NCBI GenBank assembly: GCA_963835065.1
Contig: CAWIEK010000044.1
Location: 32,001 to 96,000, forward strand
Reading direction: 5' to 3'
Length of the DNA stretch: 64,000 nucleotides
Source of the DNA: an uncultured Chthonomonadaceae bacterium
GTDB taxonomy: Bacteria; Armatimonadota; Chthonomonadetes; Chthonomonadales; Chthonomonadaceae
In this document: positions 6,157-63,879 of the stretch, one piece after another
Numbering within the stretch: the stretch's first letter is position 1
Layout of the letters: every line of letters begins with the position of its first letter
Program-made: the position numbers and the translations under genes
The notes under the pieces: model-generated
Seen by the model: the letters and a program-made list of their open reading frames with translations, nothing else
Told to the model about the DNA's origin: nothing
The model's database searches: none

Positions 6157-7226
6157 GCGAGGACGCGCGGTTTGCGCAGGGAATGGGGCAGGACGACCTG
6201 GACTCGACGGCCAAGTTCGACCGGGCGGAACTGGTGCGGGGCTGGCGCGCTTACGAGGCGCGGCAGCCGCGCGTGGTTCCCGTCGTCAAATTCGGCGCGC
6301 GTACCGATATGGGGCAGGTGCGCGAAAACAACGAGGACAAGTTCGACTTTTACGAGCCGGAAACGCCCGAAATTCTGGCGGCAAGAGGCTGCCTGTATGC
6401 GGTTGCGGACGGCATCGGCGGCGCGCTTGCGGGACAAATCGCCAGCGAAATGATGCTGAAAAATGTCATCGCAAACTATTACGACAGCCCCGCTCCCGAT
6501 CTGCAAACCGCCATGCGCGACGCCATTGTGCAGACCAATGACCGCATCTTCCATCTGGCGCAAATGATCCCGGAGCGGTCGGGCATGGGCACGACGCTGG
6601 TGGGCGCGATTTTCGTCGAAGACCGGGTTGTCATTGCGCAGGTGGGAGACAGCCGCGTCTATCTGGTGCGCGACGGGCAGATTACGCAGATCACGCATGA
6701 CCATTCATGGGTGGAAGAGCAGGTTCGGGCCGGGCTGATGCGCCGCGAAGACGCAGAAATGTCACCGTTCCGCAACGTGATTACGCGCTCTATCGGCGCG
6801 GCGGCAAATGTCGTGCCGGACTTCTACGAGGAGCAGGCGCAAATCGGCGACGTGTGGGTTTTGTGTTCGGACGGCCTGACCGGGCATGTCCACGACGGCG
6901 AAATCCTGCAAATCGCCGGCAGCCACGCGCCTTCCGAAGCCGTCCGGCAACTTGTGGAACTCGCCAATGCGCGCGGCGGGCGCGACAACATCACCGTTTT
7001 CATCGTAACCGTCCGCGATCTGCTCACGCCGGACGGCAAACCCTATACTGCGAATGTTGATGCGTTAGCGTCTCACGCTTCCGAAGCGCATAATACTTAT
7101 GCCACAAACGGGCAAGGCGATCCAACGACTTTACAGGCACAATATGCGCCGAACGAAGCGCAGCAAGATACGTCCGGCGCGGCAGAGGACAATCGCCCCG
7201 GCTGGCGTAAACTATTTGGGCGCTGA
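6153..7226 (+). CDS. PP2C-family Ser/Thr phosphatase (Stp1-like)
   Basis: RENNED, VADGIGG, MGTT, VGDSRVY, LCSDGL, GGRDNIT; ATGA overlap with the upstream gene. Confidence 0.95.
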   Translation: MSEDARFAQGMGQDDLDSTAKFDRAELVRGWRAYEARQPRVVPVVKFGARTDMGQVRENNEDKFDFYEPETPEILAARGCLYAVADGIGGALAGQIASEMMLKNVIANYYDSPAPDLQTAMRDAIVQTNDRIFHLAQMIPERSGMGTTLVGAIFVEDRVVIAQVGDSRVYLVRDGQITQITHDHSWVEEQVRAGLMRREDAEMSPFRNVITRSIGAAANVVPDFYEEQAQIGDVWVLCSDGLTGHVHDGEILQIAGSHAPSEAVRQLVELANARGGRDNITVFIVTVRDLLTPDGKPYTANVDALASHASEAHNTYATNGQGDPTTLQAQYAPNEAQQDTSGAAEDNRPGWRKLFGR

Positions 7227-7298
7227 ATGTACCGAAAGCAATGGGTGCAAATCTTGCGGCGTATGCCGTATAATGAGAATGAGAGATTTCAAGCGTAA

Positions 7299-32987: not shown

Positions 32988-33058
32988 ACCAATGGGTGTT
33001 GGGTGTTAGGTATTAGGTGTTGGGGTGATCAACGATTAGATTGAAGAAGGAAGCAAGT

Positions 33059-45473: not shown

Positions 45474-46157
45474 TCATGCCACCCACCCACTCCGCCGCAG
45501 CGCGAAGCCGATGATGAACCCTAAGATCGCCAGGAACAGGAGCATCCACCAGCCTCGGTAGCGGTATTCCGCCTTGACGCGCACTTCCAGGCGGGACTTG
45601 TTGTCGGGGTCTACGCCGTTGTGCGGCCACGCGCCCTGACTGTACAGGCTGTCGGTCAGTTTCAGCGCGATACCTTTGTGGTCGAACACATCGTAGCAGC
45701 ACACCGCGTCAATCTTGCCCGCCGTATGCAGATTTTCCAGCACCTGGCGCACCGGTATCTCCGGGTCCAGTATCCATTCGCTTGTTCCGCCAGGCGTTCG
45801 GATCATATAAGCGTCGCGGGCGAAGGTCAGCGTGATGAAGGAATTTTTCGTGACATCATCCAGCGTATTGGGCGCGTTTTGCCGACGGTTGTAGGGTAAA
45901 AATTTCCCATCCGCCCAGAAGTGCCGGAACAGATCGTTCATCTTTTCCCAGGCTTGCAAATCCGCCTGCTCCGCCATACGCTGCTTGCACTTTTCCTTCA
46001 GCGCGGTCAGGGGCGTCCCGGCAGGAAACTGCCCGATGTTGTAGATTTTGGCGTCCGGGAGCGCGTCCTGTCGTTTGGGCAGGCCGCCCTTTTCCGCCGC
46101 CCGCCCATCCAACTCCGGCAGGTTCACCTTGATATGTATGTCTTCTCGCATGGGCAT
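45474..46157 (-). CDS. C-terminally membrane-anchored protein with possible ubiquitin-like domain
   Basis: C-terminal TM WWMLLFLAILGFIIGFAL; PVRQVLENL...LKLTDSLYSQG...RLEV resembles a beta-grasp; GGAG RBS before ATG 46157. Confidence 0.6.
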   Translation of the reverse strand: MPMREDIHIKVNLPELDGRAAEKGGLPKRQDALPDAKIYNIGQFPAGTPLTALKEKCKQRMAEQADLQAWEKMNDLFRHFWADGKFLPYNRRQNAPNTLDDVTKNSFITLTFARDAYMIRTPGGTSEWILDPEIPVRQVLENLHTAGKIDAVCCYDVFDHKGIALKLTDSLYSQGAWPHNGVDPDNKSRLEVRVKAEYRYRGWWMLLFLAILGFIIGFALRRSGWVA

Positions 46158-46188
46158 TGTTCGTCGCTTTTGCTCCTGCGTTCGATTG

Positions 46189-48234
46189 TCACGAACCCTT
46201 GATGCCGCGTTGCTCTTTAAAGGGTTCATCCAATGAGTCTCGATGCCCTTTCCAACTTACAACCGCCCATTTTGGGGAGTGTACGGGGAGTGTTTTGACG
46301 TAACCCCGCAGGTCTTTACGCGCCGTGTCGGGAAGGTTATCCGCATCTACTGCCAGCAAGATATATTCAAGATCCTTCTGTCCGGTGGCATCGATCTGAA
46401 GGGGAACATCGCGTGTGTCACTGTTCTGCCACGCCATCTCGTATGGGTGATGAGTTCCATCTGCTTCGGTCACGTCCTGCTTCCCATCCGGTTCGCGCAG
46501 TACAGGCTCGGCTTCTCCAACCATGTTCTTCATATAGCTCATTATCGGGCGCGCTTTTTCTCCCGAAACGCTGAACAATTGGAAATAGTACTCCTTGAGC
46601 GGGAGTACAAAGGTGAGTTCGCTGGGGCGGCCTTCCTTTCTGGCCTCGACACTCAGAGTGAGTTCAAGAGGATTGTCCGTTCTCAGAACCGATAATCCCG
46701 CCCGCTTACAGAGTTCCTGCATCGCCGTTAACTTCGGCGCGGGAACCTTGATATGAGGGGGGCGCTTTTTAGGCGTGTGGGGATTGACAACCACTCCCCC
46801 CTGTCCCTGCCTGGGATCATGCGTTATGACTCCGCCAGATGGATTTACAGGCACCCCCCCGCTGCCAGGAGAACCCGGCGGCGGTCCGGTAATCGTGGGT
46901 GGAGCAATTAGTGGCCGGATAGGCTGTTGTTGAACCGGTGGCGTTTTATCCGATTCTTTAGGCTTGTCCGGCAGTTTATCTAATTTCAACTCTGCTGCGC
47001 ATGGAACGACATAGTTGTGGTCGTGGAATTTGCGCCGTTCGCTTACGTAAGAGATGTCAACGGGTTCCTGGTGTCCAACAGTGAAATGCTCCTTCATTGC
47101 GCTGGAAATATCAACCAGCAGTTCATAGGGTTCCGTTTCCTGCGAACTCCCACTCCACCCAAACGGCCAGCGATACCAAATATAGCGCTTGGGCAAAAAG
47201 AATTGGTACACATTGTCTCCAAGCGGGCGGCCATGGTAGCGCTTTTCAACAGCGTCCCTGTGTGACAGCAGTTCCACGCCTTGTATATCTTTCGGATTGA
47301 CAACCATGCCCGGAGGTGGTTTTAGCTGCAAATTAACTGTCGCTCCGGCATTTTCCGGGATGCCCCGGAACATCCAGACAAGCGCGCACACCACGAACAA
47401 TCCGCCGCCGATGAGCAGGGGATAGTCGTACCACCAGAGATGCCGGAACGGCACGTAATCTACAAACGTCTGCTGCTCGCAGGGCGCGACAAAGGCCGGG
47501 GAGGCTTCCCTGGGCGGCGTTACGGCAGCGTCGGCGCAAAGCGTGAAATTCTCGTTACGCTCGCGCGGATTGAGTCGGATGGTCACGGGCAGGGTAATGG
47601 AGGTTTCCGGCGCAAGCGCGTACTCCGGCAGCTTGGAAACCTTCGCGCCGTGATCCGGCGTTTCGCCCCGATACACCTGCGGCTTCACGCCCAGTTCCAT
47701 GTACGACCAGTTGCTGACGGTGATCCGCGCTTTGGGCGAGCCAAAGCCCCAGCGATGCCAGGGACGCAAGCGTACAACTTCGGGGGTTAATTCCACGCGC
47801 ACGTCGCGCTGCGTGGGCGGGGGAAACCAGTGGTACGTTTCCGGTTCGCCGATGAGCGAACCCCCATCCTGGGGCGAGTTGGTGTCGTGCTTAAAAAGAG
47901 AAACGACAAATTCACAACTTGCTTCGCGCTGACTAAGCACAACCAGCGTCAGCGTGACCCCCTCTCCCGGAGGCAGCGGAAATTTGTCGCCCGGCTTGAT
48001 ACGCCCCATATTGGAAGTAGTCAGCTCATATTCGCCGGGACTCAAGCCTTCCACGAGAATACTGGCAAACCGCATTTGAACATTCTGGTTTTCAAGCGGC
48101 CAGGTCAGTTCCGTGCCGTTGCCGACAGCGTTTTCATCCAGGCGCGCCGAAGCGCGGCCCCCGGCCCCATACTGAAACGGGCGTTCGGAGGGCCGCTGGC
48201 GGCTTGAAGATCGGGTTCGCGGCTGTATAAGCAT
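46189..48234 (-). CDS. Bitopic membrane protein (beta-rich N-terminus, TM, Pro-rich linker, C-terminal domain)
   Basis: TM YPLLIGGGLFVVCALVWMF; PPPGSPGSGG linker. Confidence 0.7.
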   Translation of the reverse strand: MLIQPRTRSSSRQRPSERPFQYGAGGRASARLDENAVGNGTELTWPLENQNVQMRFASILVEGLSPGEYELTTSNMGRIKPGDKFPLPPGEGVTLTLVVLSQREASCEFVVSLFKHDTNSPQDGGSLIGEPETYHWFPPPTQRDVRVELTPEVVRLRPWHRWGFGSPKARITVSNWSYMELGVKPQVYRGETPDHGAKVSKLPEYALAPETSITLPVTIRLNPRERNENFTLCADAAVTPPREASPAFVAPCEQQTFVDYVPFRHLWWYDYPLLIGGGLFVVCALVWMFRGIPENAGATVNLQLKPPPGMVVNPKDIQGVELLSHRDAVEKRYHGRPLGDNVYQFFLPKRYIWYRWPFGWSGSSQETEPYELLVDISSAMKEHFTVGHQEPVDISYVSERRKFHDHNYVVPCAAELKLDKLPDKPKESDKTPPVQQQPIRPLIAPPTITGPPPGSPGSGGVPVNPSGGVITHDPRQGQGGVVVNPHTPKKRPPHIKVPAPKLTAMQELCKRAGLSVLRTDNPLELTLSVEARKEGRPSELTFVLPLKEYYFQLFSVSGEKARPIMSYMKNMVGEAEPVLREPDGKQDVTEADGTHHPYEMAWQNSDTRDVPLQIDATGQKDLEYILLAVDADNLPDTARKDLRGYVKTLPVHSPKWAVVSWKGHRDSLDEPFKEQRGIKGS

Positions 48235-48270: not shown

Positions 48271-48777
48271 CTATTGAGGCTTTCTGTCAAAAATCACGGG
48301 ATAGTCGAACGAAAATTTGTCTTCCGGGCTGGCATCCTTACGATAATTCTCAAATTTATCATGCCAGAGTTTGATGTTCTTGTTTCCCTCGCTCGCCAGT
48401 TGCTTTTCCTTCTTATCCAGTAACTCCATGTACTCTTTGCGCGTAGGCCATGTTACTGTGTCTTTCCAAACCTGATAACTTCTATCATCCGGGGTGAACT
48501 CCAGATACTCTTTTTCACCCGAATGTTTACTCAGTTGATAAGGTTTTGATAATGACGGGTCGCTTAAATGCGTCTTGTGTTGGTCCTTGGCTCTGATGGA
48601 GTTACCATCCTTATCAAAACCAAAAAAGAGCAGCGTGATTTTGCCCTGCTGTTGGGGGGGCGGTATGGCCGGCGCCGGCTTCGGAGTCGGCTTGCCAAGC
48701 AGATACCCGATTACGCCGCAGACCGTAAACGCCGCAAACGCTTTTAACCAGAATATATTTGACAGACAGCGTAACAT
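48271..48777 (-). CDS. Small N-terminally anchored hypothetical protein (low GC)
   Basis: Hydrophobic AFAAFTVCGVIGYLLG followed by Pro-rich linker. Confidence 0.6.
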   Translation of the reverse strand: MLRCLSNIFWLKAFAAFTVCGVIGYLLGKPTPKPAPAIPPPQQQGKITLLFFGFDKDGNSIRAKDQHKTHLSDPSLSKPYQLSKHSGEKEYLEFTPDDRSYQVWKDTVTWPTRKEYMELLDKKEKQLASEGNKNIKLWHDKFENYRKDASPEDKFSFDYPVIFDRKPQ

Positions 48778-48794: not shown

Positions 48795-49886
48795 TTATTT
48801 GTCCGACCGCCAGTTTATCAAACTACGCTTTTTGATGGTGACATCCGGCGCGCTCGCCCCCGGCGACGGCAGAAAAGGTTTTTCCGAGTTGACGACGACA
48901 CCGCCGCCGGGGCCGCTGTCGGGCGTAATGCCGGCCTCCCACTTCTTGTACTCCTCCGCCAACTTGCGCAGCGCTTCCGAGATGAGATACAGCAAATAGC
49001 CCCAGTCGGTTTCCCGCCTTTCCGCTTCCGGGGGAATTTCCCTCAAAGCGACGGCAAGATGCGCCAGTATTTGCATCTGCTGACCATGATGCGGCAGGAG
49101 GAACCGCAGTTCGTTCAGCTGCATCAATATGCGGTACACGCGATTGAGATAAGCGCGCGGACGCTCGCCCCAATCCAGCACAACGTTCGCTTCCATCAGC
49201 GCCGCCGACATAATGCCCGCTTCCGGCTTGTGGTTCACCAGCAGTTTGTTCAGGTGCGTGAGGCAATTTTCCGCTTGTTCCTGTATCTGCTTCACGGCTA
49301 TGATCAAGCGCGGCATACTGTCCAGGCGCAGACATTCGGGAATAAACGTGTCGTCTTCCCGCAGCCCGGTTATGTCGTTGACGAGTCGCCCGATGCACAG
49401 CCAATCCTCGACGTTTTGTTCCGCCCGCGTGGTGGAAAGCAGATAGCGCATTTGCGAGAAACGGCGCGGGATGCGTCCCTGCGACGATTGTTCCCCGATT
49501 GGTTCCATGCCCTCCCGAATCCCTAAATAAACGGCGATTTTGCTGCCCGTCGCCGACGTTTCCGGGGCAAGGTCGCCGACATAGGGCGCGCACAACGGCA
49601 TACCCGCGCTGATGACGATTTCCGCCGGGTAGCCGCTCGGCATGATGGCCCGACATTCCAGCAGCTTCAGCGTACATTCCCAGATACCGCCCCGCGTGTT
49701 GTTTTGATAGCGCGTCAGACTGAAGGCTTCGCGGGGCATTTTCGCAACCCCATACGCGCCCTGCGCCAGCGCCAACAGCCGCAGTTGATCCAAAACAAAC
49801 TCGCGGTCTTCGGTCAGATACTGCCCGCGCATCATTCCGACCGAGTCCCAATACACGGCGTTCAAGTTAATGGCGTCTCTGCTCAC
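48795..49886 (-). CDS. tssK: TssK-like baseplate subunit
   Basis: N-terminal VYWDSVGMMRGQYL and LCIGRL...EDDTFIPECLRL match the TssK VxWxxGM and LxxARL...DxxFIPPxL motifs; helical C-terminus. Confidence 0.7.
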   Translation of the reverse strand: MSRDAINLNAVYWDSVGMMRGQYLTEDREFVLDQLRLLALAQGAYGVAKMPREAFSLTRYQNNTRGGIWECTLKLLECRAIMPSGYPAEIVISAGMPLCAPYVGDLAPETSATGSKIAVYLGIREGMEPIGEQSSQGRIPRRFSQMRYLLSTTRAEQNVEDWLCIGRLVNDITGLREDDTFIPECLRLDSMPRLIIAVKQIQEQAENCLTHLNKLLVNHKPEAGIMSAALMEANVVLDWGERPRAYLNRVYRILMQLNELRFLLPHHGQQMQILAHLAVALREIPPEAERRETDWGYLLYLISEALRKLAEEYKKWEAGITPDSGPGGGVVVNSEKPFLPSPGASAPDVTIKKRSLINWRSDK

Positions 49887-49955: not shown

Positions 49956-51632
49956 TTATTTGGCGAGACAGGAGCGCAGGGGAAGCCCCTCGCGCGTCCG
50001 GGGCGCGTTGCCGTCCGCAAGCCAGGCGGTTTCACCGAGAACAGCCGCGTCTACCGCCCATCGGCAGCGCAGCGGCACATGCGCGGGCAGAAACAGCCGC
50101 CCCAAAACTTCCAGCCGTTTATGCGCCTGCTCCGTTTTTGATTCAGCCCAGGCGTTTTCCACTTCGGGGCGGCCCGCCGCCTGCGCTTTCTGTTCTGCCG
50201 TTGCAGTCGCTTCTGCCGTTACAGTCGCTTCTGTCGCTTCTGTGCCTCCTGCCGCTTCTGACGCTTCTTCCGGTTCGGAGGTTTCAAAGCGCTCATGCGG
50301 CAGATACACGATCACTTCGGGCGCGCGCAAAATCGCTTCGCCTTCCAGCATCAGCGTTAATCCCAACTGCGCAAGGGGCGTTCCCATCCGGCTTTCCACG
50401 CTGTGATAGGCTTCCAGGTGGATGCTTGCGTCCTGGGAAACCAGCAGGCGAACGGCGCGGTCGAAAAGCGCGCCCCAATCCGTCACTTCCCGGCGTTTCA
50501 GCAGCAGCGCCCACAAAATGCCCTGCGCTTGCGGTTCGGAAAACAACTGCCAGTCTTCGGGCATCAGTCCCAAAAATCCATCGTCCTTCCAATCCTGCAT
50601 CAGCCGCAGCAGAACGCCATTCAAGTCCAGGCCGCCGAGCAATCCGTTTTGCGCGTAGGGCTTGCTTTTTCGGCCAAGCCAATAGGCCAGCGGGTTTACG
50701 CCCAAAGCCTCCGGCGACTCCCCGGTTTGAAAGGCCGTTAATGTCGCTGCAAAAAAATCCTCAACGGTCAAATCCCAATCGGGCGGCGACCAATCCATCG
50801 GATACGCTGCGCCTTCCAGCATGTCAATTTCGGCCAGGTGCAGAAACATCAGCGTGAAAAACCGCTCCGCCAATCGCGTGGCCGCATCGGTCTGCGTATC
50901 TACATTTTGATCGTCCCAAACAAAGCCGTGCGGGTTGGCGACGGGAATCAGCTGATTGTCGCGCAGCAGCAGGATGTAATCGGAAGGCGTTTGCAGCGCG
51001 GGCGGCGACTGCAATTCCGGGTACTGCGTTCGCCACAGCCGCGCCAGCCATTGCGTGGGAGACATCGCGCCGGGCATCACCATTCCCTGCGCGCCCGGCG
51101 CGTCGGGCGCGGCCAATCCCTGTACGGCAACAAACCCCAACTGCTCCGTCCATTCGTCCGGGCTGCGGTCAATCAGCCACCGGTGCGTTTCCAGGCAGGC
51201 CTGCTCCTGCCGGTTGGGGATCAGACTCGGCGCGAACTGCGTGTCCCAGAGGCTGGCCGCGAGCCGTTCCGCCAATGCGCGCAGTTCCTCCTCCAGGATG
51301 GGCGCAGGCGTTTTGGGCAGTCCGACCTGCATCAGTGGATACAGCCATTGCAGCCGATTGTCGGCCCGTATATTCAGGTCAATAGAGCCGTCCTGGCGCG
51401 CGGCAATCACTTCCGGCTGCGCGAAATGCCCGACATTGGGCGTAACGCGCATCGTTTCCAGCGGGATGCCCTTTTCCCGCAGCAGCAGCACGGCGTACAG
51501 CAGAAAAGCCGGGCCGTTCAAAGCAGAAAAATACTCCAGTTCGTCGTATTTCAATTCCACTTTCGGCGGCGCGGGCTTGCCGGGCGTATTCGCCTGCCCC
51601 GTTGATGCGGCTTCCGTTGGCTCCGGGTTCAT
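49956..51632 (-). CDS. Divergent TssG-like baseplate subunit
   Basis: Lies between TssF-like and TssK-like genes; C-terminal AQLGLTLML...LGRLFLPAHV; ATG 51632 overlaps the upstream stop (ATGA). Confidence 0.5.
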   Translation of the reverse strand: MNPEPTEAASTGQANTPGKPAPPKVELKYDELEYFSALNGPAFLLYAVLLLREKGIPLETMRVTPNVGHFAQPEVIAARQDGSIDLNIRADNRLQWLYPLMQVGLPKTPAPILEEELRALAERLAASLWDTQFAPSLIPNRQEQACLETHRWLIDRSPDEWTEQLGFVAVQGLAAPDAPGAQGMVMPGAMSPTQWLARLWRTQYPELQSPPALQTPSDYILLLRDNQLIPVANPHGFVWDDQNVDTQTDAATRLAERFFTLMFLHLAEIDMLEGAAYPMDWSPPDWDLTVEDFFAATLTAFQTGESPEALGVNPLAYWLGRKSKPYAQNGLLGGLDLNGVLLRLMQDWKDDGFLGLMPEDWQLFSEPQAQGILWALLLKRREVTDWGALFDRAVRLLVSQDASIHLEAYHSVESRMGTPLAQLGLTLMLEGEAILRAPEVIVYLPHERFETSEPEEASEAAGGTEATEATVTAEATATAEQKAQAAGRPEVENAWAESKTEQAHKRLEVLGRLFLPAHVPLRCRWAVDAAVLGETAWLADGNAPRTREGLPLRSCLAK

Positions 51633-53278
51633 CGCGCAATCTCCGCAAGGATTCGATACCAGCCCAGGGAAAAGTTTTGTTCCAGGCAGGAAGCCGCGTG
51701 GTGCGCCATGTCTTTGAGCAGATAATCCGGCAGCGCAATTGTCGGCTTGACCGGCAGCGTCAGGCGCATGACCGGCGAAATCGGCAGGGAGGGGGCGGCT
51801 TCCTCCGGCGCATTCGCGCCTTCGGTGGGAAGCGGCGGCAGAAACGCGGGCTGATAGGAGAGAAACGGTTCTGCCATGCGCGAAGGCCAAAGATAACTGT
51901 CCCATAGCGTCGGTTCCTGTACGCGCGCATTCACGCCTTCCAGCCGGAACTGCGCGCGGCTGATGTCGAAGCAGCGATGGCAGTCCGGGAGATGCCGTAA
52001 AAATTCCTGCAATTCCCCGAACGTCAGCATCCGGGAGCGCAGGAAAATCCACTGCCACCAGAAGCGGCAGGCGTCGCCCGTCGGGTCGCTGAAATCCAGC
52101 GTCAGCCCGCCGACGGGAAACAGGCTGATGTCAAATTTCGAAGGCGCTGCCTCGCGCTGATTGTCCGGGTCGCTGACAATTTCGCGGCGTTCGCGGCGCG
52201 CGGCGGGTTCTGACGCCTCAAATTCGGCAGGTTCAATCGTGCCCCGGCTGCCGTAATAAACGCGCGCTTCCTGGGCCTGATTGCCACACGCCACGCGCGT
52301 TTTGTTGCCCTCATGGCGCAGCGGCGCGGCCTCCCAGGTGTCCCCGCTCACGCCCGCCGCCGCGAAAACGCCCTTCAAATCATCGAAGATAATCTCGATT
52401 TTACCCATTACCAGGTCGCGGCGCGTCGGCTGCCAGTCCATCTTCATTTGCGCCGCGACAACGGGATTGAGCAGCAGCCAATCGTCGCCCTCCGCGAGCC
52501 GCTTGCGCAAACCCGCGCCAATCTCATCCTCCATCGTGACCGACAACGCGATCTGCGTGGCTTCCCCCCGGCTTCCCCCTGTCTGCCCGTATGTGGGCAG
52601 CGCAGCAAAAGGAGACGGACTCGAACCGGACGGGCTTGCGAAACCTGTGGAAAAACGGAGATGCAGGATTTTGCGGGAATAGGGATAAAAGGGCGGCAGC
52701 CAGGTTTCCAGCGCGGGCGTGGTGGGCGCGGACAATCGCAGCGACTGCTCCAGTTCGCAATACCCTACGTACCGCTCCACCTGCACCGAACAGGGGCGTC
52801 CATCAATCTGCGCGCGCCACGTCGCTTCCGCCAGGCTCGCAACCGCTTCTTCTTCGGCGGCAATGCAGACCAGCATCCCCATTTCCGGGTCGGTTAAATC
52901 GGGTTCCTCCGTTCCGGGGATATGGCGCAACGTCCAGAAGCAGGAGTTTTCGCTGACGCGGCAGTTCTGCGTGAAAATCGGACGAATCCAGCCTTCACCG
53001 CATGGCGTCCAGGGCTCCCGATGTTCGTCAAACGCCACATCGCGCCGACGAATCAGGGGCGTGGCGGCGGGACTGGTTTGCGATGACGTGATCTGCTGCC
53101 AGGCGGGGCTTTGCGGCAGCAGCAATCCCTGCATGGGAAACTGCCAGACGCCCTGCGGCAAAATCTGCGCCGAAATCTGCCCCGCCACATGTCGGTGCGC
53201 CTGTTCCAGCCGCTTCGCCAGAAGTTCGTTCCACTTGTCGAGAAAATTTTCAAAAGGCCGGCTATAGGTGTCTGTCAT
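51629..53278 (-). CDS. Divergent TssF-like baseplate subunit
   Basis: 549 aa; AQILPQ..FPMQGLL, LLLNPVVA, RSRMLTFGE resemble TssF motifs; synteny. Confidence 0.55.
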   Translation of the reverse strand: MTDTYSRPFENFLDKWNELLAKRLEQAHRHVAGQISAQILPQGVWQFPMQGLLLPQSPAWQQITSSQTSPAATPLIRRRDVAFDEHREPWTPCGEGWIRPIFTQNCRVSENSCFWTLRHIPGTEEPDLTDPEMGMLVCIAAEEEAVASLAEATWRAQIDGRPCSVQVERYVGYCELEQSLRLSAPTTPALETWLPPFYPYSRKILHLRFSTGFASPSGSSPSPFAALPTYGQTGGSRGEATQIALSVTMEDEIGAGLRKRLAEGDDWLLLNPVVAAQMKMDWQPTRRDLVMGKIEIIFDDLKGVFAAAGVSGDTWEAAPLRHEGNKTRVACGNQAQEARVYYGSRGTIEPAEFEASEPAARRERREIVSDPDNQREAAPSKFDISLFPVGGLTLDFSDPTGDACRFWWQWIFLRSRMLTFGELQEFLRHLPDCHRCFDISRAQFRLEGVNARVQEPTLWDSYLWPSRMAEPFLSYQPAFLPPLPTEGANAPEEAAPSLPISPVMRLTLPVKPTIALPDYLLKDMAHHAASCLEQNFSLGWYRILAEIAR

Positions 53279-53321: not shown

Positions 53322-53747
53322 TTAGCCTAAAATATCGTTCTGAATGTATTGCAGCAGTCTATGGATTGTTCGCGCTTCAAGAGTACTCCGTGTTTTTGCT
53401 AAAGCAGCTAGGCGTGTTCTATGTCCCTGATCAAGCGCGCCGGCAACCTGCTGGCGATCCAAATCCCGTAACCCGTCAGCAACCGTGACCAACAACTCAC
53501 CATCTGCTGCGTCCAGCATCTGTATCATCAGAGGAAGCGCATATCGCAACTCTCCATGAGGAAGGATTTGAGCGAGATAGCGCTGCCATTGTAGAGGTTT
53601 TTGGCGCCAAATCCTGTTTAGCGCGTCCCAATCGTCAGATGTCAACGGCCCTATAAGCGTGTGAGCATAAAGGATAACATCATCTGACCAGTAATCCACA
53701 GAGTAGTCCTGACTGAGACAGTCATCAAGCATAGCTAGTGTACTCAT
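53322..53747 (-). CDS. Putative immunity protein for the EndoU toxin
   Basis: 141 aa helical ORF 9 nt after the toxin stop; same low-GC block. Confidence 0.7.
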   Translation of the reverse strand: MSTLAMLDDCLSQDYSVDYWSDDVILYAHTLIGPLTSDDWDALNRIWRQKPLQWQRYLAQILPHGELRYALPLMIQMLDAADGELLVTVADGLRDLDRQQVAGALDQGHRTRLAALAKTRSTLEARTIHRLLQYIQNDILG

Positions 53748-53756: not shown

Positions 53757-54950
53757 TTACCATTGGGACGGGTTTCCACCTGTCGGGTAGGAAGAGGTAA
53801 TATTACCTTGCGCATCTTTAATCACTTCCCATTGAACGCCATCCACAGTTTGCCTGTGCAGGGTGGCGCCATCCCTGACACGCGATGCGACTTCCGGGGT
53901 GTCTGCTACCTTTCCAGTCGTATCAAGTATCTTCTGATCAGTCCAGTCATCAGGCGCTAAAGTGGACTGTTTGATTTTAGAAAGATTTCCGTCTGGAAAT
54001 TGAGTTACAAACTTGACTTTTGAAGTGCCGTCAGGATAGGTTTCAAGAACCTCATGGTCGAAATTGGGCGATGTTTTGATTTGAGGAGAATGCCCTCCAA
54101 TAACTTCGTTGGACATTCCTCCTGGTGAATTAGCATTTGGCACTCGTTGACTGTAAAGAATCTTCTGCTCCATTTCAGGAGTAAGTCTCTGGCTTGCAGG
54201 AACTTCGACTTCACCCGGAACGAACTTTCCCGCAAGCCCACTGCCGAGCGCAGCACCCGCAAAGCCACCTGCAAAGGTTAGAACTTTCTGACCGGTAGAC
54301 CCCTCTCCGAAAATCTTGCCGCCTGCCCAATGCCCGCCCATACCGCCGCCGATGCCGCCCAAAAACCCGCCGCCCAGCCTGGCGGCGATAGCAGCCATGC
54401 CTAATCCCCTGGCGGTCATTGCCAGGCCACCGCCGGCCAATCCCAACACCAGCAAGGCTGCCTCAGCCTGCCAGGGAACTTCGCTATGGATGTCCGCGCA
54501 GGTATGTACCGGGCCGCCAATCAAAACGGTGGAACACCCTTGCGCGATGACAAAGCCGCATACGCCCTTATCTGTTTTACGCGCCGCGTGCAAGCCTTCA
54601 ATCAAGACGGTTTCGCTGCCCTGCGCGACCAGAGACACTTTATGGGCGACGCAAGCAACCTTACTGCCACATGCAATGGCCGCCTGCCGTCCGTCGCCTC
54701 CAATGTAAACTGTGGCTGCTCCCGTGATGATAGGGCCACTGTCGGCAGGGATCATGGAGCCAACAACTTCGCCTATCATCCCTCCCAGAGACGCTCCCGT
54801 ACACGCCGCGCCCGCAATCGCCAGCGCCGCCGCGCCGCCGGTCGCAATGATTGCCGCGCCAATCACTGCGCCCGCAAGCGCGCCCACTATCAACCCCGCG
54901 AATGCAGAGGAATGTGAAACCTGATCTCCTATTCGCGCGGCTTCCGGCAT
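53757..54950 (-). CDS. prePAAR-TMD-PAAR-TMD effector with C-terminal EndoU-like RNase
   Basis: AARIGDQVSH prePAAR motif; Gly/Ala TM hairpins; GSETVLIEGLHAARKTD; GGH...KQSTLAPDDW...ITSSYP EndoU pattern. Confidence 0.85.
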   Translation of the reverse strand: MPEAARIGDQVSHSSAFAGLIVGALAGAVIGAAIIATGGAAALAIAGAACTGASLGGMIGEVVGSMIPADSGPIITGAATVYIGGDGRQAAIACGSKVACVAHKVSLVAQGSETVLIEGLHAARKTDKGVCGFVIAQGCSTVLIGGPVHTCADIHSEVPWQAEAALLVLGLAGGGLAMTARGLGMAAIAARLGGGFLGGIGGGMGGHWAGGKIFGEGSTGQKVLTFAGGFAGAALGSGLAGKFVPGEVEVPASQRLTPEMEQKILYSQRVPNANSPGGMSNEVIGGHSPQIKTSPNFDHEVLETYPDGTSKVKFVTQFPDGNLSKIKQSTLAPDDWTDQKILDTTGKVADTPEVASRVRDGATLHRQTVDGVQWEVIKDAQGNITSSYPTGGNPSQW

Positions 54951-54968
54951 AATCAACAGTCCCCAGGT

Positions 54969-55391
54969 TCAGCGCAGCAGGCTGAAACTCTCAACCAGCG
55001 ATGCAAGCTGCTTTTCGTAGCGGTCGAAATTTACTTCTAAAGCGGTGGCCGTCAGCGTCAAAGCGAGCTGATTGGAATAGAAATAGTATTGATGCTGACG
55101 CATCATACCGTTCTCGGAACGCCAGGTAAAATTGGCTCGGATCGTGTGCCTGCCCCCAATAGCGGCAGGGCGCTGCTCAAGCAGAAGAAACCCGTTCAGA
55201 TTTGCCTCTAAGACTTTCAATTGCCTGGCTGCGTAACTGTTCACATCTTCGTCGGCTCTGGCGTCTTCTCGATTCATCACGACATTGAACTCGCCCGGAC
55301 TGGCTCCCGCATTGGTAAAGATGTGAACAGACAGGTCTTTCCACCCTTCGGGCAGGAAGAAGGATCCCTCATTGAACTTGTATAAAGGCAT
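54969..55391 (-). CDS. Eag/DcrB (DUF1795) effector chaperone
   Basis: YKFNEGSFFLPEGWKDLSVHIF...LVESF; directly upstream of a prePAAR effector. Confidence 0.85.
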   Translation of the reverse strand: MPLYKFNEGSFFLPEGWKDLSVHIFTNAGASPGEFNVVMNREDARADEDVNSYAARQLKVLEANLNGFLLLEQRPAAIGGRHTIRANFTWRSENGMMRQHQYYFYSNQLALTLTATALEVNFDRYEKQLASLVESFSLLR

Positions 55392-55519
55392 ATACGCTTC
55401 CCTCATTATCCCAAGACCGGAAGATAGTTGTTTTAGAGACGGTTTCGCCCGCCTGCGGGGCCGCAGCAGCACTTGCCGGTGGCATTGCGGCGACCCGCTT
55501 ACTTTTGGATTGCTGATTC

Positions 55520-56296
55520 TTACGGATGGTGAGACTGTACAGGCAGATCACCCGGCAGGATAGGCCGACTAAGCTCGCCGGTATATTTCAGCACTTGCAG
55601 GCCCGTACCCGGAACGGGTACAGAAGAGCGCAGCAGTTCTATATCTTTGTCTGACAGTCGGGTCTTTACGGCTGCTGCATTTAAATCCAGCGCCGTTGAG
55701 CCGAGGAAAGCTGAAGGTGTCGCTGTCACATCGGGCCGCGCGGTGACATATTGAACGATTAGCTCGATCTGCTTCGCCTGGACAGGCGCCATAGGGATGG
55801 TATCATTTCTGAAGAAATAGGCGCTGTGTTCTGAAACAGGAACAGGAACCTCAATATCCAACTGCAGATCAGAATGTGCCTTAAGGCGGGTGGCACAGGG
55901 CCGATTGGAGTAGGTAACCAGCCTTTTGGGGAGTGGAGACGCGCCTAATAACAGGCGTAATGTCCCATCTTGAAAGAAGCAGTAGACGTGTTCCGGGTCA
56001 AGAACGGGATGATTATTTTTGGCCTCCAACCGCCACAGACGGTTTAGCACATAAATGTCTTCATTGCCAGAGTTCGTTATGTGTATGCCGACACGCAAAA
56101 TAGAGGCGCTGGTCACTGTGAAATTTGTTTTCATATGAACCGAACCCCGCGTAGAAGTTGGGTCGGAACTTGGCGTTCCGCTGCCAAGCGGCACATTTTG
56201 GCCGACAGTGTTCATGCTTTTGCTCCTTATTTTGTTTTTATCGTCTTTGGCGAGACTACGACAGGCAAGATTGCAGCCTAAGGCTGCAATCAACAT
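55520..56296 (-). CDS. Hypothetical protein, candidate immunity for the VgrG peptidase; start uncertain
   Basis: Directly downstream of vgrG, lower GC; possible lipobox-like ALGC near the N-terminus. Confidence 0.5.
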   Translation of the reverse strand: MLIAALGCNLACRSLAKDDKNKIRSKSMNTVGQNVPLGSGTPSSDPTSTRGSVHMKTNFTVTSASILRVGIHITNSGNEDIYVLNRLWRLEAKNNHPVLDPEHVYCFFQDGTLRLLLGASPLPKRLVTYSNRPCATRLKAHSDLQLDIEVPVPVSEHSAYFFRNDTIPMAPVQAKQIELIVQYVTARPDVTATPSAFLGSTALDLNAAAVKTRLSDKDIELLRSSVPVPGTGLQVLKYTGELSRPILPGDLPVQSHHP

Positions 56297-56339
56297 TATA
56301 CATCGCCAGCGCTTTTTATATTGTGTTTGCACACTACAT

Positions 56340-58772
56340 TTAAGGCTGCGACGGAGGCGTGTTGGGAACAAAAGCATTGTCAGCATCAGAATGATTTACC
56401 CTGTGGTATGGATAGCCTATGTCGCGCAGATAATCTGCTTCCGAAGGCGTTCCTGTTGAAATTGTAGTTTTTTCTTCCAGTGTGTCGAAGACCGGGTCCG
56501 GCGCGCAGTCGCCAATGCCGTTCATCTGATGCGCGCCATGTGTCATTTCGTGAAACAAAATGGCATCATTAGGAACCGGATGTGCCGGATCAAGGGAGTT
56601 TGTAAGCGTTAGATCCGGCAGAAGCCTTACAGTGGTATCAGCCCCCGTTCCAGTACCAATGCGCTGTGTTACGCCATCAGCCTCCATAACGGGTGCCCCG
56701 GAGCCGTAGAATACAGGTTTACCTACAGCCGTAGACGCTTGCCATTCATCATCGGTATCCGGGCCGCAATCGCTGTTTGGTCCGTTTGGATCGTTAGCTG
56801 GATACTCGGTAATCTTCATGTTGTGTCCGCTCTCATCAATGCTGTTGAGGGTCTGCATACCGGAATCGGTAGTGGCAATTTTGTCAAGCCGATCCAATGC
56901 CTGCGCCTGGAAAGCGGGCGTACCGTGAATGGTAATAGCCCTGCCTACTTTGGTGTCCCCGTTGGGCAGCTTCGTAACGGCCATTCCTCCAACAGTACGC
57001 GTTGCCGCAGTGCCCGTTCCCGCGCCTCCTGCTGGCCCTGCTCCCACGCCTAAACTCGTGTCCAGGTGCAGGGGTGACATGGAGGTGGGTCCACAGTTGA
57101 TCATAACGAGCGGCGTTCCGTCTATCTTGACAGTTCCCTTTGTCGCCTTCATCTGGATCGTGCCCGCTTCCAGCATCAACTGGTTGTCGGCGTGCATGTA
57201 GATGCTGCCCGAACAGAAGATGTCAAGCTGCGCGGGGCCACTCCCCTTCTCGAAGTGAATACGATCACTCCCCGAACTTGTCAGGTCCATCACCACTGTC
57301 TCTTTGCCGCCCTCGATCTCGCCCCGAAAGATCAACTTGTCCTTACAGCGTATCTCTACAATGTCGGTGGCGCCTTTGTCTTTCGTCGTCATGCTCACCA
57401 GATTACCCGAAGGTGTCCGCCACAACTTGGTTTCATCCGGCGCATACACAAACCCCTGCGCCGCATGTTCACGCACCGACCCGATCACGACTGCATCGCT
57501 GTCCCAACCATCTAAGAACTGCACAAGCACATGCTCGCCCACTTCCGGCAGCGACAGAAAGCCCGACGTGCCGGTCTTGCCCTTCAACCCGCCATATGGT
57601 GTGACGGTTTGCAGCCAGCACAAGCGCGTAAACGGCGTCGCTTCCAGCGGCTCCCAATCGAACTCCACCTGAATACGCCCGCTCTTGGTCGGATCGTCGC
57701 TATTGTTCTTGGTCACATGCGCCCACAGGCACTGCATCGGCCAGTTGGTGCGCCGCAAGCGGGGAAGCAGGGGCATCAGTTTGTCTAAGAGCGCGAACTC
57801 CTGCGACACGGCTTCGCTGCCATGTCCTTGTATGGTCACGTCGCGCACCAGCCAGGGTTGTTCGGCAAAGTTGACCAACGCGCCAGGCGCAAAGGCGTAC
57901 ACGCCTCCCATCCAGCGCGCCCGGCACACAACCGTGTTCACATCCAGGTTGGTCGCATCCTCTAACTTCTGTTCCTGCTGGTACTGCGCATGATGGGGCG
58001 CGTCCGCTTTCGGTTCGTACAGGTGCCCCGGCGCGCGCGTCAAACCCGCGTTGAACTCCAGCACCTTAGAACGCGCAATACCCGGCGACGCGCTGCCGGT
58101 GCCCTGCGCGGTTGTTTGTATGGGAACCAGGCCCGCTTCCAGACTGGTCGTATTCCAGTGCCTATCCGCGCTCGGAAACTCGTCGCCTGCCGGAACGCTC
58201 GGTTTGCCGATCAGCACTTTGCGGTTGAGGTCGTCAACGGCTAGGGGAATGCCCCACGCATGCAGCATCCGGCACAAGTAAGCAAAATCGGTTTCTTCGT
58301 ACTGGACGCTGAGGGGTATCTTTACGCTTCCTGTTGCGCTCGCCCCGCCTTCGCCGAAGTCAAGTTCTCCCTTGTTCTTGCCGATGAGGTAATCGCACAC
58401 ATCTTTGAGCGTACAGCTTTCCCACACGCGGAAGTTGCGGATTTGATCCAGGCGCGCGCTGTAGGACACGCACTCGAAGTGGAAGTAGGCGCGGTGTTCC
58501 AGCCGTTCGGCGCGCACGGAGCGCACATAGCCCCGGAAGCAGTCCACCGTTTCGCTGTCATCCTTAGAATGCCAGCGCAGCAGCACATCGGCGTTGAGGG
58601 TTTTTGCGCCTTTTTCGGCAAGAGCGGCGTAGGTATCGGCTTCCTGATCGTCGGTTCCGAGCGTACAATGGGCCGTGCCGTGCGTGTACAGGCGGCGGAC
58701 GATGGACACATCGGCCAGTTCCGTTTTGGCGATCAGCCCGTTGATTACACCCGACACGATCTCGAACGACAT
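56340..58772 (-). CDS. vgrG: Evolved VgrG with C-terminal HExxH zinc metallopeptidase (M91/NleD-like)
   Basis: VQYEETDFAYLCRM, DPTKSGRIQVEF, LPEVGEHVLVQF, VMINCG, then a G/A/T linker and ILFHEMTH. Confidence 0.88.
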   Translation of the reverse strand: MSFEIVSGVINGLIAKTELADVSIVRRLYTHGTAHCTLGTDDQEADTYAALAEKGAKTLNADVLLRWHSKDDSETVDCFRGYVRSVRAERLEHRAYFHFECVSYSARLDQIRNFRVWESCTLKDVCDYLIGKNKGELDFGEGGASATGSVKIPLSVQYEETDFAYLCRMLHAWGIPLAVDDLNRKVLIGKPSVPAGDEFPSADRHWNTTSLEAGLVPIQTTAQGTGSASPGIARSKVLEFNAGLTRAPGHLYEPKADAPHHAQYQQEQKLEDATNLDVNTVVCRARWMGGVYAFAPGALVNFAEQPWLVRDVTIQGHGSEAVSQEFALLDKLMPLLPRLRRTNWPMQCLWAHVTKNNSDDPTKSGRIQVEFDWEPLEATPFTRLCWLQTVTPYGGLKGKTGTSGFLSLPEVGEHVLVQFLDGWDSDAVVIGSVREHAAQGFVYAPDETKLWRTPSGNLVSMTTKDKGATDIVEIRCKDKLIFRGEIEGGKETVVMDLTSSGSDRIHFEKGSGPAQLDIFCSGSIYMHADNQLMLEAGTIQMKATKGTVKIDGTPLVMINCGPTSMSPLHLDTSLGVGAGPAGGAGTGTAATRTVGGMAVTKLPNGDTKVGRAITIHGTPAFQAQALDRLDKIATTDSGMQTLNSIDESGHNMKITEYPANDPNGPNSDCGPDTDDEWQASTAVGKPVFYGSGAPVMEADGVTQRIGTGTGADTTVRLLPDLTLTNSLDPAHPVPNDAILFHEMTHGAHQMNGIGDCAPDPVFDTLEEKTTISTGTPSEADYLRDIGYPYHRVNHSDADNAFVPNTPPSQP

Positions 58773-58910: not shown

Positions 58911-59345
58911 TTAGTTTTCGGCTGCCGTGCCGGCCGAGACGTCAATGAGGTTCTTGCTATCGTAGTTGACGGTTCCGGGCAACGCGGCCATAATGTTGAC
59001 CGTGATGGTGGAACCTGTCAGCTGCAAGTCCGTGCCGACGCCGCCTGCCGTGACATCCGATCCCCATTCGTTTTCCGCATAGCTGCTGACCCAGGCGTGA
59101 GGAATTATCCAGTTGTGCTGCGGCTTCTCATCGCGGCTTTCCGTGCTCAATTCCACTTTCTTGAAGCGGTCCGGGCCGGCTTTGGCCTTTACCCAGTCGG
59201 CGAGCAGCGTGTCTTCAGTCAGCCGCACAATGACTACCATCCCGGCGATGGGCACTTTGAGCGGTTCGCGGCTGTCGCCATGTCCAATGTTCACGGTTGC
59301 GCGCAGCACCTGCTGAATCTCGGTGCCATTGATTTTCAGTTTCAA
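58911..59345 (-). CDS. Hcp/TssD-like tube protein
   Basis: About 144 aa, beta-rich; LADWV...FKKVEL...AWVSSYAE; lies between sheath-like gene and vgrG; TTG start with AAGGAG RBS. Confidence 0.7.
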   Translation of the reverse strand: MKLKINGTEIQQVLRATVNIGHGDSREPLKVPIAGMVVIVRLTEDTLLADWVKAKAGPDRFKKVELSTESRDEKPQHNWIIPHAWVSSYAENEWGSDVTAGGVGTDLQLTGSTITVNIMAALPGTVNYDSKNLIDVSAGTAAEN

Positions 59346-59602
59346 CGTTTTACTCCTTGTCAGTTGCAAACTTCGAGTTCAAAACTAGTTCCAGGACGAT
59401 TTTGAAAAGGCGCTTGCCGGGATGCGGCAGGGCATTTCCCTTTGCGCATGTAGAGCGTTCGCCTTTGCGCATGAAAATGTCGAAGTGTCCGCTCCTGGAA
59501 TACCGAACACCGGAACGCCGGCATCTTCATACAATGTCACCAGTCCCTAGTGGCTAATCAATAGTGGCTGGCCGAAAAATGGTTTGTCGCTAACGTCGTT
59601 GT

Positions 59603-62108
59603 TCAATTGAAGGAAATATGCAGATCGCCGACAACGCCCTCTTTGAAGTTCAGCTTGATGCTGTAACCGGCGGAAGGGTCGTCCACGTCATTGGGCGTGA
59701 CCACAACGCCGTCTTCTTTCAGCGGGCCGGGGAACGCATTGACGGTCTTGCCCAGCGGATCGTACCAGCCCTTGTTGCCGCCGTCCACATACAGCAGAAT
59801 TTCCGCGATAAGCGCTTCCATTTCCTCCTGCGTGGGCAGCGCGCCGCCTTCAAACGCTTGATACGCCAGCAGCAGGCGGCGCAGATACACCTCCTGCCGG
59901 TAGTGGTGAATCATGCGATAGCGATAGCCGGAGCCGATGTCCACGCGATACAGCGTGCGCGGCGCGACAATCGCAGGGTTTTTGCCGGCAACATGCCGAA
60001 ATACGAGAAACGACTGATCCACGCCCGAAAACTGCGAATAGATGTCGTCGCCGGTAAACTCGTCGAGCGGTACGCGGGTCTGCGCGAATATGGGATGGGC
60101 GGTAACATCTACGGCAATACCGGGCAGTCTCGGGTTCACCTGTTGCTGCATTTTGGAAATAGCCTGCAGCACTTTGGGCTGGTCATTCGCCATGATGCGT
60201 CCCGCCGCGACATAGCAGGCGCGCACGGCAACGGGCGGCACTTCCACCGCTACCTCGCGCCCGTCCGCCACCTTGCCCGTGATCAGTACGCCGTCCGGGG
60301 GCAGGCACAGGAAATCGGGCGCGCACAAAATGCCGGAAACCGCCCACGACTGCCCCACAACGTCGTCCACGCAGTAATCGTTTTGTACGCCTTCCACAAC
60401 GACTTTTTTCGCCCGCCCGGAAATCAGCCTTTCTTCGGGCGAGAACAGTACTTGAAAGCCGCACTCATAGCCCAGTTCCATCAGGCCCATCACTTCGGCT
60501 GCGCCCGCCACGCGCCCAAACCCGCCGAACTGCTCGATGCGCTCGTGGCGCAGTTTCTCGATGCGCGCGTCCAACTGGATATGGTCATCCTCGACCTCGG
60601 CCTCTGTGGTACGCTGGTAATCCTCTTCAAAGTTGCCGCCCCGGATGCGCCCCTCGCCGGGGGGAGTCGGTTCCTGGCCGAGGAAGGGAGCGACATGCGG
60701 CACAATCGCAAAGGAAATGGCGTCCTGGTACTGGTTGCCAGCCTGGTGGCATGCGCGGCGCATGTAGTAGACAAGCTCTTCCTGATAGATTTGCCACAGG
60801 TCGGTCAGTTCGCCGTTGGCGACGATAAGTTCCGGCTGTATGCCCATGACGTCCGGCGGAAACTCGTTGAAGAGAGAATAAACTCCCATAATCGTTTCAA
60901 ACAGAGGAATCACTTCGCGGAGGAAGCTTTGTACGCCCTTGCTGTACACGCCAAGAAAATCGTCATGCGCTTTCGCCAATTCCTGCGCGTCGAATTTGTA
61001 GGTGATTCCATCCGGGCCGGTCAGACCTTTGGCAAGTTCTTTGGGATCGTTGAGGACGACGGCAAGCAGGTTTCCTACAACCGGGTCAATCTTCTTCAGA
61101 CGCACCATCTCGCTCATGAAGCTGCCGACAACGGCGGGAAGCTGGGCTTTTCTGTCCTTGATGGTAGCGATTTCGCTCAGGTCGCGCTTTGCCAGGGGCT
61201 TGCTTTCCAGCGCGTTGCGCAGGGGAACCAGTTCCGTGCTTCCCGTGCGGGTGGCCGCGCCCGCGCCGATGGCCTTGCGCGTGGGCGGCGGCAATTTGGG
61301 AATGTCTTCGACGCTCAGGCGGCCATTGGTTCCGATGGTCAGGAACAAATTTTGATCGCTTGATTGACCGCTGCCCCCACTCGGCCCGACCATAGATTTG
61401 TAAGATTCCAGCAGCGCGTGTTCCGCGATGGCTGTGGTGCGCAGTTGATCGGACAGCGCGTTTTCCAGTTCGGACTTGCGCCGCTCAAAGGCTTCCAGCG
61501 AACGCTGGATGTCCTTGTTCATCTTCACTTCGCCGCTGGAATCTTCGGCCCGCTTCATTTCGATCAGCAGTTTTTCCAACTGGGCATGCAGCGTCTGCAT
61601 GGACTTTTTCACCAAGCCGTACTGTACGCTGGGCTTGAAGCCAAACAGCGCTTCGTCAATGTTGACCCGATCCGCGCCCTGACGCAAACGCACCCGATTG
61701 CTGATAAGGTCGCGCAGCGAACGGATGAAGGGATGGGAACTCGTTGATGAGTATCTTGGTCCAGCCCGGCCCGCCTTCCAGCGAGAACTCATAATGCGGA
61801 AGTTCATCAAGGGAGTAGACCTGGCCTTCCGCGTCTTCGGTCGTGATTTGCCCACCCGCCCGTAGGCGATAAAAAAAAGCGGGCTGCATCTTGTCCATGA
61901 ACTCTTTGAAAGAATGGACAGCCAGTTCTTTCTTGACTTTGTCTCGAAATTGCGTCCACGTCATCAAGCCGGACTGCAAATAGGCCAGCATATCTTCCAG
62001 GCGTGGCGCATCTATGGACAAGTTGACGGAGGTAAACAAAATGGCGCGGCTGGTGTTGGGCTGCATGGTCTGATTGACAAATTGCAGCGTTTTACGATTA
62101 ATGGGCAT
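59603..62108 (-). CDS. Large divergent sheath-like protein (TssC-like C-terminal half); split by a one-base frameshift near 61738
   Basis: Removing one base joins ...KILINE to SHPFIRSL..., giving 834 aa; FAIVP, YVAAGRI, APRTLY and terminal YSIKLNF resemble sheath/TssC motifs; first gene, upstream of the tube. Confidence 0.55.
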
Positions 62109-62601
62109 GTCGAACTTTCTCCCGGAATGTGACTGTTTGTTTTACCTGCATTGTTCTAGTGACGTAGAATACACCACTCGTGTTCCGTCTATCGCCATAA
62201 AAAGTAGATATTGAATGATCATCTTTGCAAGATGAGCGTCAACTTCACAAATTGATAAATATGATCAGATGGATGAGGCGCAAAGCGGTTTTAGGCCAGC
62301 GAAATTGGAGGATCTGCTGAATTTAAGAGAGTGTTCTACCCTAACCAACCTGACAGGCGAAAAGTTCTGTTGCGGTTCCCAATCTGGCGCGATTTTAAGA
62401 AAATTTTATTCAAACCACAGAGGAAAAGCATATCCAGTCGGTCAATCTATATCCACGCCCTGTTACTTTCAACAGCCTGCCCGGGCGCAAACGATTTTCC
62501 CATACTCTGTTACATCTTCCAATGGTCAAGGCATGTTAGATAAATGCAACCAAATGGATTGTGTAAAAATATTCCTGAGCAACTATCCCGGAGGTCGTTC
62601 C

Positions 62602-63879
62602 ATGCCAAAGTATACACACATGGTTTGTTTGGTTGGCGAGAATCCTCTGCCTATCTGGTTGGGAATTCACCAGTTTATGCCATCGAAGCAAGAAACGGCC
62701 AACATAGAAGCAAAGCCGATTGTCCGTCTCGTCTACTCAAGTCAAACCAAGAAGGTCGCTGAACACCTGCAAAAACAGTTGCAGCATGAAAGCGATAGTG
62801 GTCTGCACGAGATTAGATGCTTATTCGATGCCGATGGCGAACTCAAAGAAGCCTTTTCACCACAGGCAATGAGGGAGACGTTGAAAAAGCTGAATGGCGA
62901 GAACCTTAGTGATCTTGACGATTATGCGTTGAACTACACCGGTGGCACAAAGGTTATGGCTGCCTACTTTCTCCACGACTGGATGACGACCGGACGCAGT
63001 GACCGCGCATTCTATCTACAAGAAACAAACGGGCAATTTCACTTTGATAGCGGCACCCCATATCCACTTAAGCCAACTATTAGAGAGTTGACACTTGACA
63101 CTCTCGAAAGACTTCACGGCGCTAATCCGCATTCGTTGCGCCCCAATGTGCCCTGTAACAAACAAGATTGTGTGAATTTTTATAATGCACATCAAAGCGG
63201 CGAGTTGGCAAAAATCAAGAAGAAGTCATCTGATAAGTGGAACCCACTAGAACCTTCAATTCCTTACTTTCATGCCCAAGTTGAAAGTGAAGGAACTTGG
63301 AGAGGGGAGAGTGAATGGGCGCAAATTTTTACACTACTCACCGACAATGCGCGTACGCAATGGCAGCAATCTATCTTCTATTCTGATGACACAAAGCAAA
63401 AGCTCAGTGAAGAACTCAAGGAGCAGTTCCGCTTTGCCTTTAAGAATGAGTGGCTGGAATGGCTTGTCATGTTCTGGCTGAAAGAAGTATTGCCTGACAG
63501 TAAAGTTACCACTGGCAAGAAGTTCAAAATTGAAGGCCAAGAGTTTGAAGCAGATGCGCTGGTGGTTCACAAGAATCGTCTTTATTACTTCTCTGTCACT
63601 ACCAAATTGAAGCCCGATGAGTGTAAAGAGAAAATGTTCGAGGCTATACACCGCTCGCGGCAGTTGGGTGGTGGATTAGCGCGTTCTTGTACCATTTGCC
63701 TGGCAGATGAATACGATGATTACGAGAGCGGCAAAAAGGTGGATACAGTTTCAGCAATTCGTAAATCTCTCACGAGCAGCGATAAAATCGGGAACCACAC
63801 CATCTTTGGACTTAAAGAGATCACTAAATGGCTAACTGATGAAAACATCGAAGATATGGAAACTTTCATCAATCAATAG
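62602..63879 (+). CDS. CARF-domain PD-(D/E)XK nuclease (Card1/Can2-like CRISPR ancillary effector)
   Basis: LVGENPLP, LNYTGGTKVM (CARF); WLEWLV...FEADAL...YFSVT...RQLGG; GGAGG RBS before ATG 62602. Confidence 0.8.
   Translation: MPKYTHMVCLVGENPLPIWLGIHQFMPSKQETANIEAKPIVRLVYSSQTKKVAEHLQKQLQHESDSGLHEIRCLFDADGELKEAFSPQAMRETLKKLNGENLSDLDDYALNYTGGTKVMAAYFLHDWMTTGRSDRAFYLQETNGQFHFDSGTPYPLKPTIRELTLDTLERLHGANPHSLRPNVPCNKQDCVNFYNAHQSGELAKIKKKSSDKWNPLEPSIPYFHAQVESEGTWRGESEWAQIFTLLTDNARTQWQQSIFYSDDTKQKLSEELKEQFRFAFKNEWLEWLVMFWLKEVLPDSKVTTGKKFKIEGQEFEADALVVHKNRLYYFSVTTKLKPDECKEKMFEAIHRSRQLGGGLARSCTICLADEYDDYESGKKVDTVSAIRKSLTSSDKIGNHTIFGLKEITKWLTDENIEDMETFINQ

Follow-up and report, generated by a model that had tools for sequence, protein, structure and literature searches.

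The gene at 59603..62108 on the minus strand of the window, as we call the whole 64,000-nucleotide stretch analysed from an uncultured Chthonomonadaceae bacterium, probably, to judge from the predicted fold of an intact homologue, encodes the contractile sheath, in one piece, of a T6SS-like injection system that is likely anchored in the membrane. It is likely the single-chain sheath of a T6SS-like system for which we found no description in the literature searched: titles and the beginnings of abstracts yielded no published account of the family, and subscription literature, where a prior name is possible, fell largely outside this search. The available portions of 10.1101/134874 and PMC5797969 contain nothing relevant to the family.

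The window's ORF list shows two overlapping minus-strand ORFs at this position, 62108-61656 (150 aa, with the motifs TSRAILF and LAVHSFKEFMDKMQP) and 61855-59603 (750 aa, with FAIVP, YVAAGRI and APRTLY). Both are parts of a single gene of 834 codons, broken by one extra base at about 61738. P0002 (843 aa), the closest of the intact homologues, matches the 150-aa ORF at 71% over ORF residues 3-130, with its own residues 1-124 as the counterpart of that region, and the 750-aa ORF at 76% over residues 31-750. The sheath-family profile is interrupted at window positions 61740-61744 in the source genome, and a contig from run X1 (depth 2, ca. 97% identical), which covers 59077-62111, differs by 97 substitutions and, as its sole gap, one base omitted at 61738. 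This contig is in frame, and the 2506 bases minus one give a sheath protein of 834 aa, as the preliminary description had anticipated in proposing a single frameshifted gene of about that length. We place the frame break at 61736..61744 (minus strand) and, upstream of it, the 5' part of the gene at 61739..62108 (minus strand), about 123 codons for the N-terminal arm strand and a small alpha/beta region.

The extra base at 61738 is either an assembly error or a recent mutation in the source strain. That the source-genome copy is a true pseudogene, with the system inactive in this strain and intact in its kin, seems to us somewhat unlikely. The extra base is indeed present in the source assembly, the contigs of run X2 (99% alike) miss the junction and raw reads of the source strain were absent from the comparison; however, the in-frame contig from run X1, the stop-free remainder of the gene, the short G/C runs adjoining the extra base and two further frameshift-like loci in the assembly (three with the sheath gene, versus 18 intact among the queries used) all argue against it. 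The break lies close to the end of a TssB-sized N-terminal region, as would suit a natural split or programmed frameshift giving separate TssB-like and TssC-like chains, but this is very improbable and largely refuted by the near-identical, in-frame contig; in addition, the codon-position GC of both overlap tails appears off-frame. In place of the separate tssB and tssC genes of canonical T6SSs, one open frame (844-874 aa) occurs in 16 of the 17 other gene-bearing genomes of the phylum, the 17th being cut by contig ends. In all, 18 of 401 phylum genomes carry the gene, the source genome included, and 12 of these belong to one genus; in one more genome of that genus it is broken at several places. 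Our reading remains that of a single, one-piece gene. Elsewhere in the window, overlapping same-strand ORF pairs at 20226-22860 and 33041-35394 each resemble one gene with a frame change, which fits assembly indel errors.

The structure model is that of P0002, and the window coordinates of its hairpin were mapped through the alignment with the 750-aa ORF. A sheath candidate had been proposed from the sequence, and by fold match the model of this intact homologue has both traits of the sheath superfamily, a subtilisin-like core and a C-terminal handshake domain. The N-terminal arm predicted to complete the core, with a strand at about residues 14-22, lies in the same chain. TssC chains cover the core from residue 383, and the TssC/VipB-like sheath core (residues 383-834) corresponds to 59603..60961 (minus strand). 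One-chain sheath structures align to the model from residue 1-18 to 832-843, values that are end points of ranges only, and they tie in Z with TssC. The predicted helical hairpin (residues 156-237; 61388..61633, minus strand) is a coiled coil of about 85 residues with heptad patterns in which 8/9 and 8/12 of the a/d positions are hydrophobic. Residues 1-140 are mixed alpha/beta and residues 243-287 are of low confidence, so that the coiled-coil N-terminal half described earlier was overstated and shrinks to this hairpin. We rejected a Walker A motif, as the GxxxxGKT-like string of some homologues sits in a beta-hairpin of the model, and the window protein has ITGKV instead. Most close homologues (P0003-P0019) bear a long acidic, low-complexity N-terminal insertion at about residues 85-140, from which the window protein and P0002 are nearly free.

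The protein might also be a literal TssB-TssC fusion that arose from a two-gene T6SS and gained a coiled-coil linker; this is a refinement compatible with our main reading, and we regard it as possible but doubtful. The domain order fits, with the arm strand, a TssB-sized alpha/beta region, the hairpin and the core covered by TssC, and the best TssB alignments coincide at the LxVxSFxEF stretch or the one next to it. Nevertheless, none of the comparisons with TssB reaches significance (E 0.008-0.24, probability <5), 4 of 20 shuffles outscored the real one, and an unsplit ancestral sheath with insertions of its own accounts for the data equally well.

Homologues were collected by a word-based search, in which 8000 candidates were scored and 22 proteins kept, the window's own included, and by an alignment search that kept 42 of 7998 candidates. 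The full-length close homologues (n = 44, omitting two partial matches and the entry for the window protein itself) are all whole, with 839-922 aa. The named ones comprise 'bacterium HR15', a member of Armatimonadota, one labelled Armatim... and another with the label Caldarchaeum; for the host we infer Armatimonadota. P0039 and P0043 (879-897 aa) form a third, long-branched subfamily; the protein tree is a quick one in which long branches meet, and we drew no order of events from it. Despite its predicted fold, the sheath is missed by the family libraries: searches of Pfam, NCBIfam and PHROGs gave no naming match, the best PHROG being no better than E 0.038. Likewise, sequence and profile searches of the PDB gave no naming match and returned mostly designed or generic helical proteins aligning to the hairpin. 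VipB matched in none of the 401 phylum genomes (control positive), a scan of viral contigs for TssC gave no match, and no RNA holder was listed. The likeness to Bacteroidota-type TssC previously read from FAIVP, YVAAGRI and APRTLY, motifs that are all present, was not recovered with PF17541, the Bacteroidota TssC family, which did not match the sheath protein in searches of which one had a silent control.

The sheath gene is the first of an operon on the minus strand. It is followed by a gene for a 152-aa putative tube protein, Hcp/TssD-like (58911..59369); a gene for a VgrG spike with a C-terminal Peptidase_M91 domain (56340..58772; PF05954, PF04717 and PF14891, with TIGR03361 under cut-off at E 8e-17); a 288-aa ORF that from its position is a possible immunity gene (55520..56386; no family in Pfam or NCBIfam); a gene for a DcrB/EagR-type effector chaperone (54969..55472; PF08786, E 1e-25); one for a prePAAR-PAAR-EndoU nuclease effector (53757..54956; PF05488 and PF14436 over cut-off, PF25799 under it at E 5e-5); and a 141-aa ORF, by position another possible immunity gene (53322..53747; no Pfam family). 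Next come conserved genes of 549 aa (51629..53278) and 700 aa (49956..52058, true start probably near 51630), which by position alone are putative TssF-like and TssG-like baseplate genes, and the gene for a TssK-like baseplate connector (48795..49886). Hydropathy marks the last three products: a 168-aa protein with an N-terminal hydrophobic segment (48271..48777) and a 681-aa protein with a central one (46189..48234), both candidate membrane anchors, and a 251-aa protein with a C-terminal segment and a TssL-like layout (45474..46229).

We compared seven loci, that of the window and those of six of the 18 matching relatives. All seven contain the sheath gene with the 152-aa family immediately downstream of it, as well as VgrG and the 549-aa and 700-aa families; the 251-aa protein occurs in six, the TssK-like protein in five, and the 168-aa and 681-aa proteins in four each. 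In these seven loci, sheath homologues adjoin the candidate tube and share the locus with VgrG, as expected of a sheath gene in the preliminary description. The tube assignment comes from this constant position and a weak match: against Hcp1 (6bdc) the 152-aa protein scores E 0.13, rank 2 of 3 behind an unrelated lectin (0.11), and against the Hcp profile E 0.06-0.18. Two relatives have three tandem tube-family genes (L012:12692-14419 and L100:2619-4424), one with a long low-complexity tail.

T6SS profiles for comparison were built from eight annotated loci. In profile-profile tests against TssB, TssC, Hcp, TssF, TssG, TssE, TssA, TssL and TssK, the sole match was TssK, a distant one (hhalign probability 91, E 9e-7; TIGR03353 under cut-off at E 1.7e-6). 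A VgrG and PAAR spike is present, with PF05954, PF04717 and PF05488 over cut-off, and at the place expected for the TssE/TssF/TssG wedge stand two conserved genes with no significant profile match. The three hydrophobic proteins have no match in Pfam or NCBIfam, and the two compared with TssL gave nothing significant. Neither PF05591 (TssB) nor PF05943 (TssC) was found in the 92%-complete source genome, with positive controls; the gene upstream of the sheath is divergent, in agreement with the earlier statement that no tssB adjoins it. This low-GC gene (62269-63879, plus strand; 536 aa) has a weak match to Card1 CARF (E 0.001, under cut-off) and possibly starts a CRISPR-associated locus.

The same sheath could instead belong to a free particle, cytoplasmic or released by lysis in the manner of an eCIS, a tailocin or the Streptomyces CIS, rather than to a reusable anchored T6SS, and we judge this unlikely. 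One-chain sheaths are usual in phages, pyocins and eCIS, with Z values here equal to those of TssC; ClpV gave 10 matches in the 92%-complete genome, none over cut-off and none on the sheath contig; and no TssJLM was recognised, TssL being the member compared. Against a free particle stand the TssK-like gene, DcrB and prePAAR, which are T6SS traits, and the three conserved hydrophobic proteins. Moreover, the operon has no tape-measure match, and its 14 scanned ORFs have no match to Phage_sheath_1, gp19 tube, Baseplate_J or DUF4255, and hence lack the marks of an eCIS, whereas both Phage_sheath_1 and Baseplate_J are matched in a cluster that stands apart on the plus strand of the window. That cluster, an eCIS at 24287-45439 with a sheath (PF04984/PF17482), tube, RHS, Baseplate_J and a fibre-like gene, is convergent with the T6SS-like operon. 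In none of the six relatives do the two lie side by side, and because of this we rejected the idea that our gene provides the eCIS with a second sheath.

In the anchored machine that we favour, one chain would supply both the N-terminal arm strand and the TssC-like core, according to the P0002 prediction and its fold match. In canonical T6SSs the arm strand comes from TssB. If it behaves like solved sheaths, the protein would form hexameric rings that polymerise around the product of the adjacent tube gene. The hairpin and residues 295-372 would likely point outward. VgrG, PAAR, the TssK-like protein and the conserved 549-aa and 700-aa proteins would form the baseplate, and the three hydrophobic proteins would tether it in place of TssJLM. 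On contraction, VgrG-PAAR would be pushed into neighbouring cells together with its EndoU nuclease and M91 peptidase.

The family extends beyond Armatimonadota, with distant relatives in Bacillota, a mostly Gram-positive phylum, where many of the carriers are bacteria of gut and soil. Searching 1.84 billion representatives yielded 27 matches, including proteins of 680-725 aa at E 2e-6 to 1e-3, and an alignment of five distant matches led to 374 confirmed stretches, out of 412 pattern matches, in species-representative genomes, from Bacillota wherever named. Those named among the best 79 loci come from Lachnospiraceae, Oscillospiraceae, Paenibacillus, other Clostridia and the diderm Selenomonadaceae. 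The Bacillota family of ca. 725 aa aligns with the window's over 662 columns (probability 99.7, E 4e-27), and by this profile comparison both are the same sheath family. The 142-aa genes downstream in Bacillota correspond to the window's putative tube family (probability 81, E 1e-5) and the window VgrG to a Bacillota GPD gene (probability 99.6); the match of the 700-aa family to Bacillota cluster 10 is weak (probability 34, E 4e-4), and in profile-profile comparisons the TssK-like protein found no partner in the Bacillota clusters. The Bacillota sheath protein had no match in the plasmid collection.

Gene counts were made in the 50 of the best 79 loci with >9 kb downstream, using a crude ORF caller. 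The putative tube family occurs in 40 of these, PP2C in 39, vWA in 38, two FHA families in 34 and 35, and DnaJ and a weakly SrfB-like protein in 26 each; within 10 kb, GPD/VgrG was found in 13 and DUF4280 in 12. Many Bacillota loci have two tube-family genes. The SrfB match of a protein of about 880 aa (L060:10094-12733) is weak (E 0.03); with DnaJ it would make a possible chaperone pair for sheath recycling. Because FHA, PP2C and DnaJ genes accompany the sheath in these loci, the clostridial clusters named in the preliminary description are confirmed, as is its link to Gram-positive bacteria by the homology and the 374 stretches. As a whole, the earlier interpretation is partly supported, in the sheath family (by predicted fold) and the Bacillota link. 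In the window itself, genes at 363-9401 (plus strand) resemble, as read from sequence alone, DnaJ-FHA, vWA, double FHA, PP2C and Ser/Thr kinase, the domain set of the Bacillota clusters. We rejected them as part of the system, being >35 kb away and absent from the six relatives' loci save for one kinase match.

In most accounts, T6SSs are machines of Gram-negative bacteria whose sheath is encoded by two genes. We tentatively propose, with somewhat less than even confidence, an unrecognised one-piece-sheath subtype of type VI secretion that Armatimonadota share with hundreds of species of Bacillota, monoderm gut Lachnospiraceae and Paenibacillus among them. In Bacillota, a membrane FHA/PP2C/vWA module would control its firing, and DnaJ with the SrfB-like protein would recycle the sheath in place of ClpV. 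If true, Gram-positive gut commensals would carry a cell-based contractile weapon, and the one-piece sheath would show the unsplit state that gave rise to TssB and TssC. The family also offers a structural bridge from the one-chain sheaths of phages to the split sheath of T6SSs. The question can now be tested in cultured carriers of the sheath gene, for example Roseburia inulinivorans DSM 16841, Selenomonas ruminantium S137 and Paenibacillus terreus DSM 100035.

Among known systems, the T6SS sheaths TssB/TssC (VipA/VipB, IglA/IglB; 3J9O, 5N8N) share the predicted TssC-like core, but ours is a single chain of ca. 835-920 aa (ca. 725 aa in Bacillota) instead of two, with 8-10% identity and an extra hairpin; PF05943, PF05591 and PF17541 are unmatched, no ClpV exceeds the cut-off and TssA, TssE and TssL were not recognised. 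We also compared the one-chain sheaths of phages, R-pyocin, diffocin, Afp/PVC and Streptomyces CIS (8KEE, 9EV2, 3J9Q, 6RAO, 8BL4). Unlike these, our family does not match Phage_sheath_1, and its operon has genes for T6SS-type effector loading and no recognised Baseplate_J or tape measure. Parts of the CIS of Halogeometricum borinquense are reportedly derived from eCIS. This haloarchaeal CIS (9EZM; PMC11566945) has 12% identity to our family and another gene set. Finally, in the part available of their paper, Zhang et al. 2021 (PMC8651086) guessed at an unknown, phage-like system for translocation in Firmicutes with PAAR_H2 (DUF4280) and Phage_GPD, and that part names neither sheath nor tube. 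The Bacillota loci are like it in having GPD/VgrG and DUF4280 and no recognised T6SS or eCIS markers, and they are probably this translocation system, likened by markers; our results probably supply its sheath and candidate tube.
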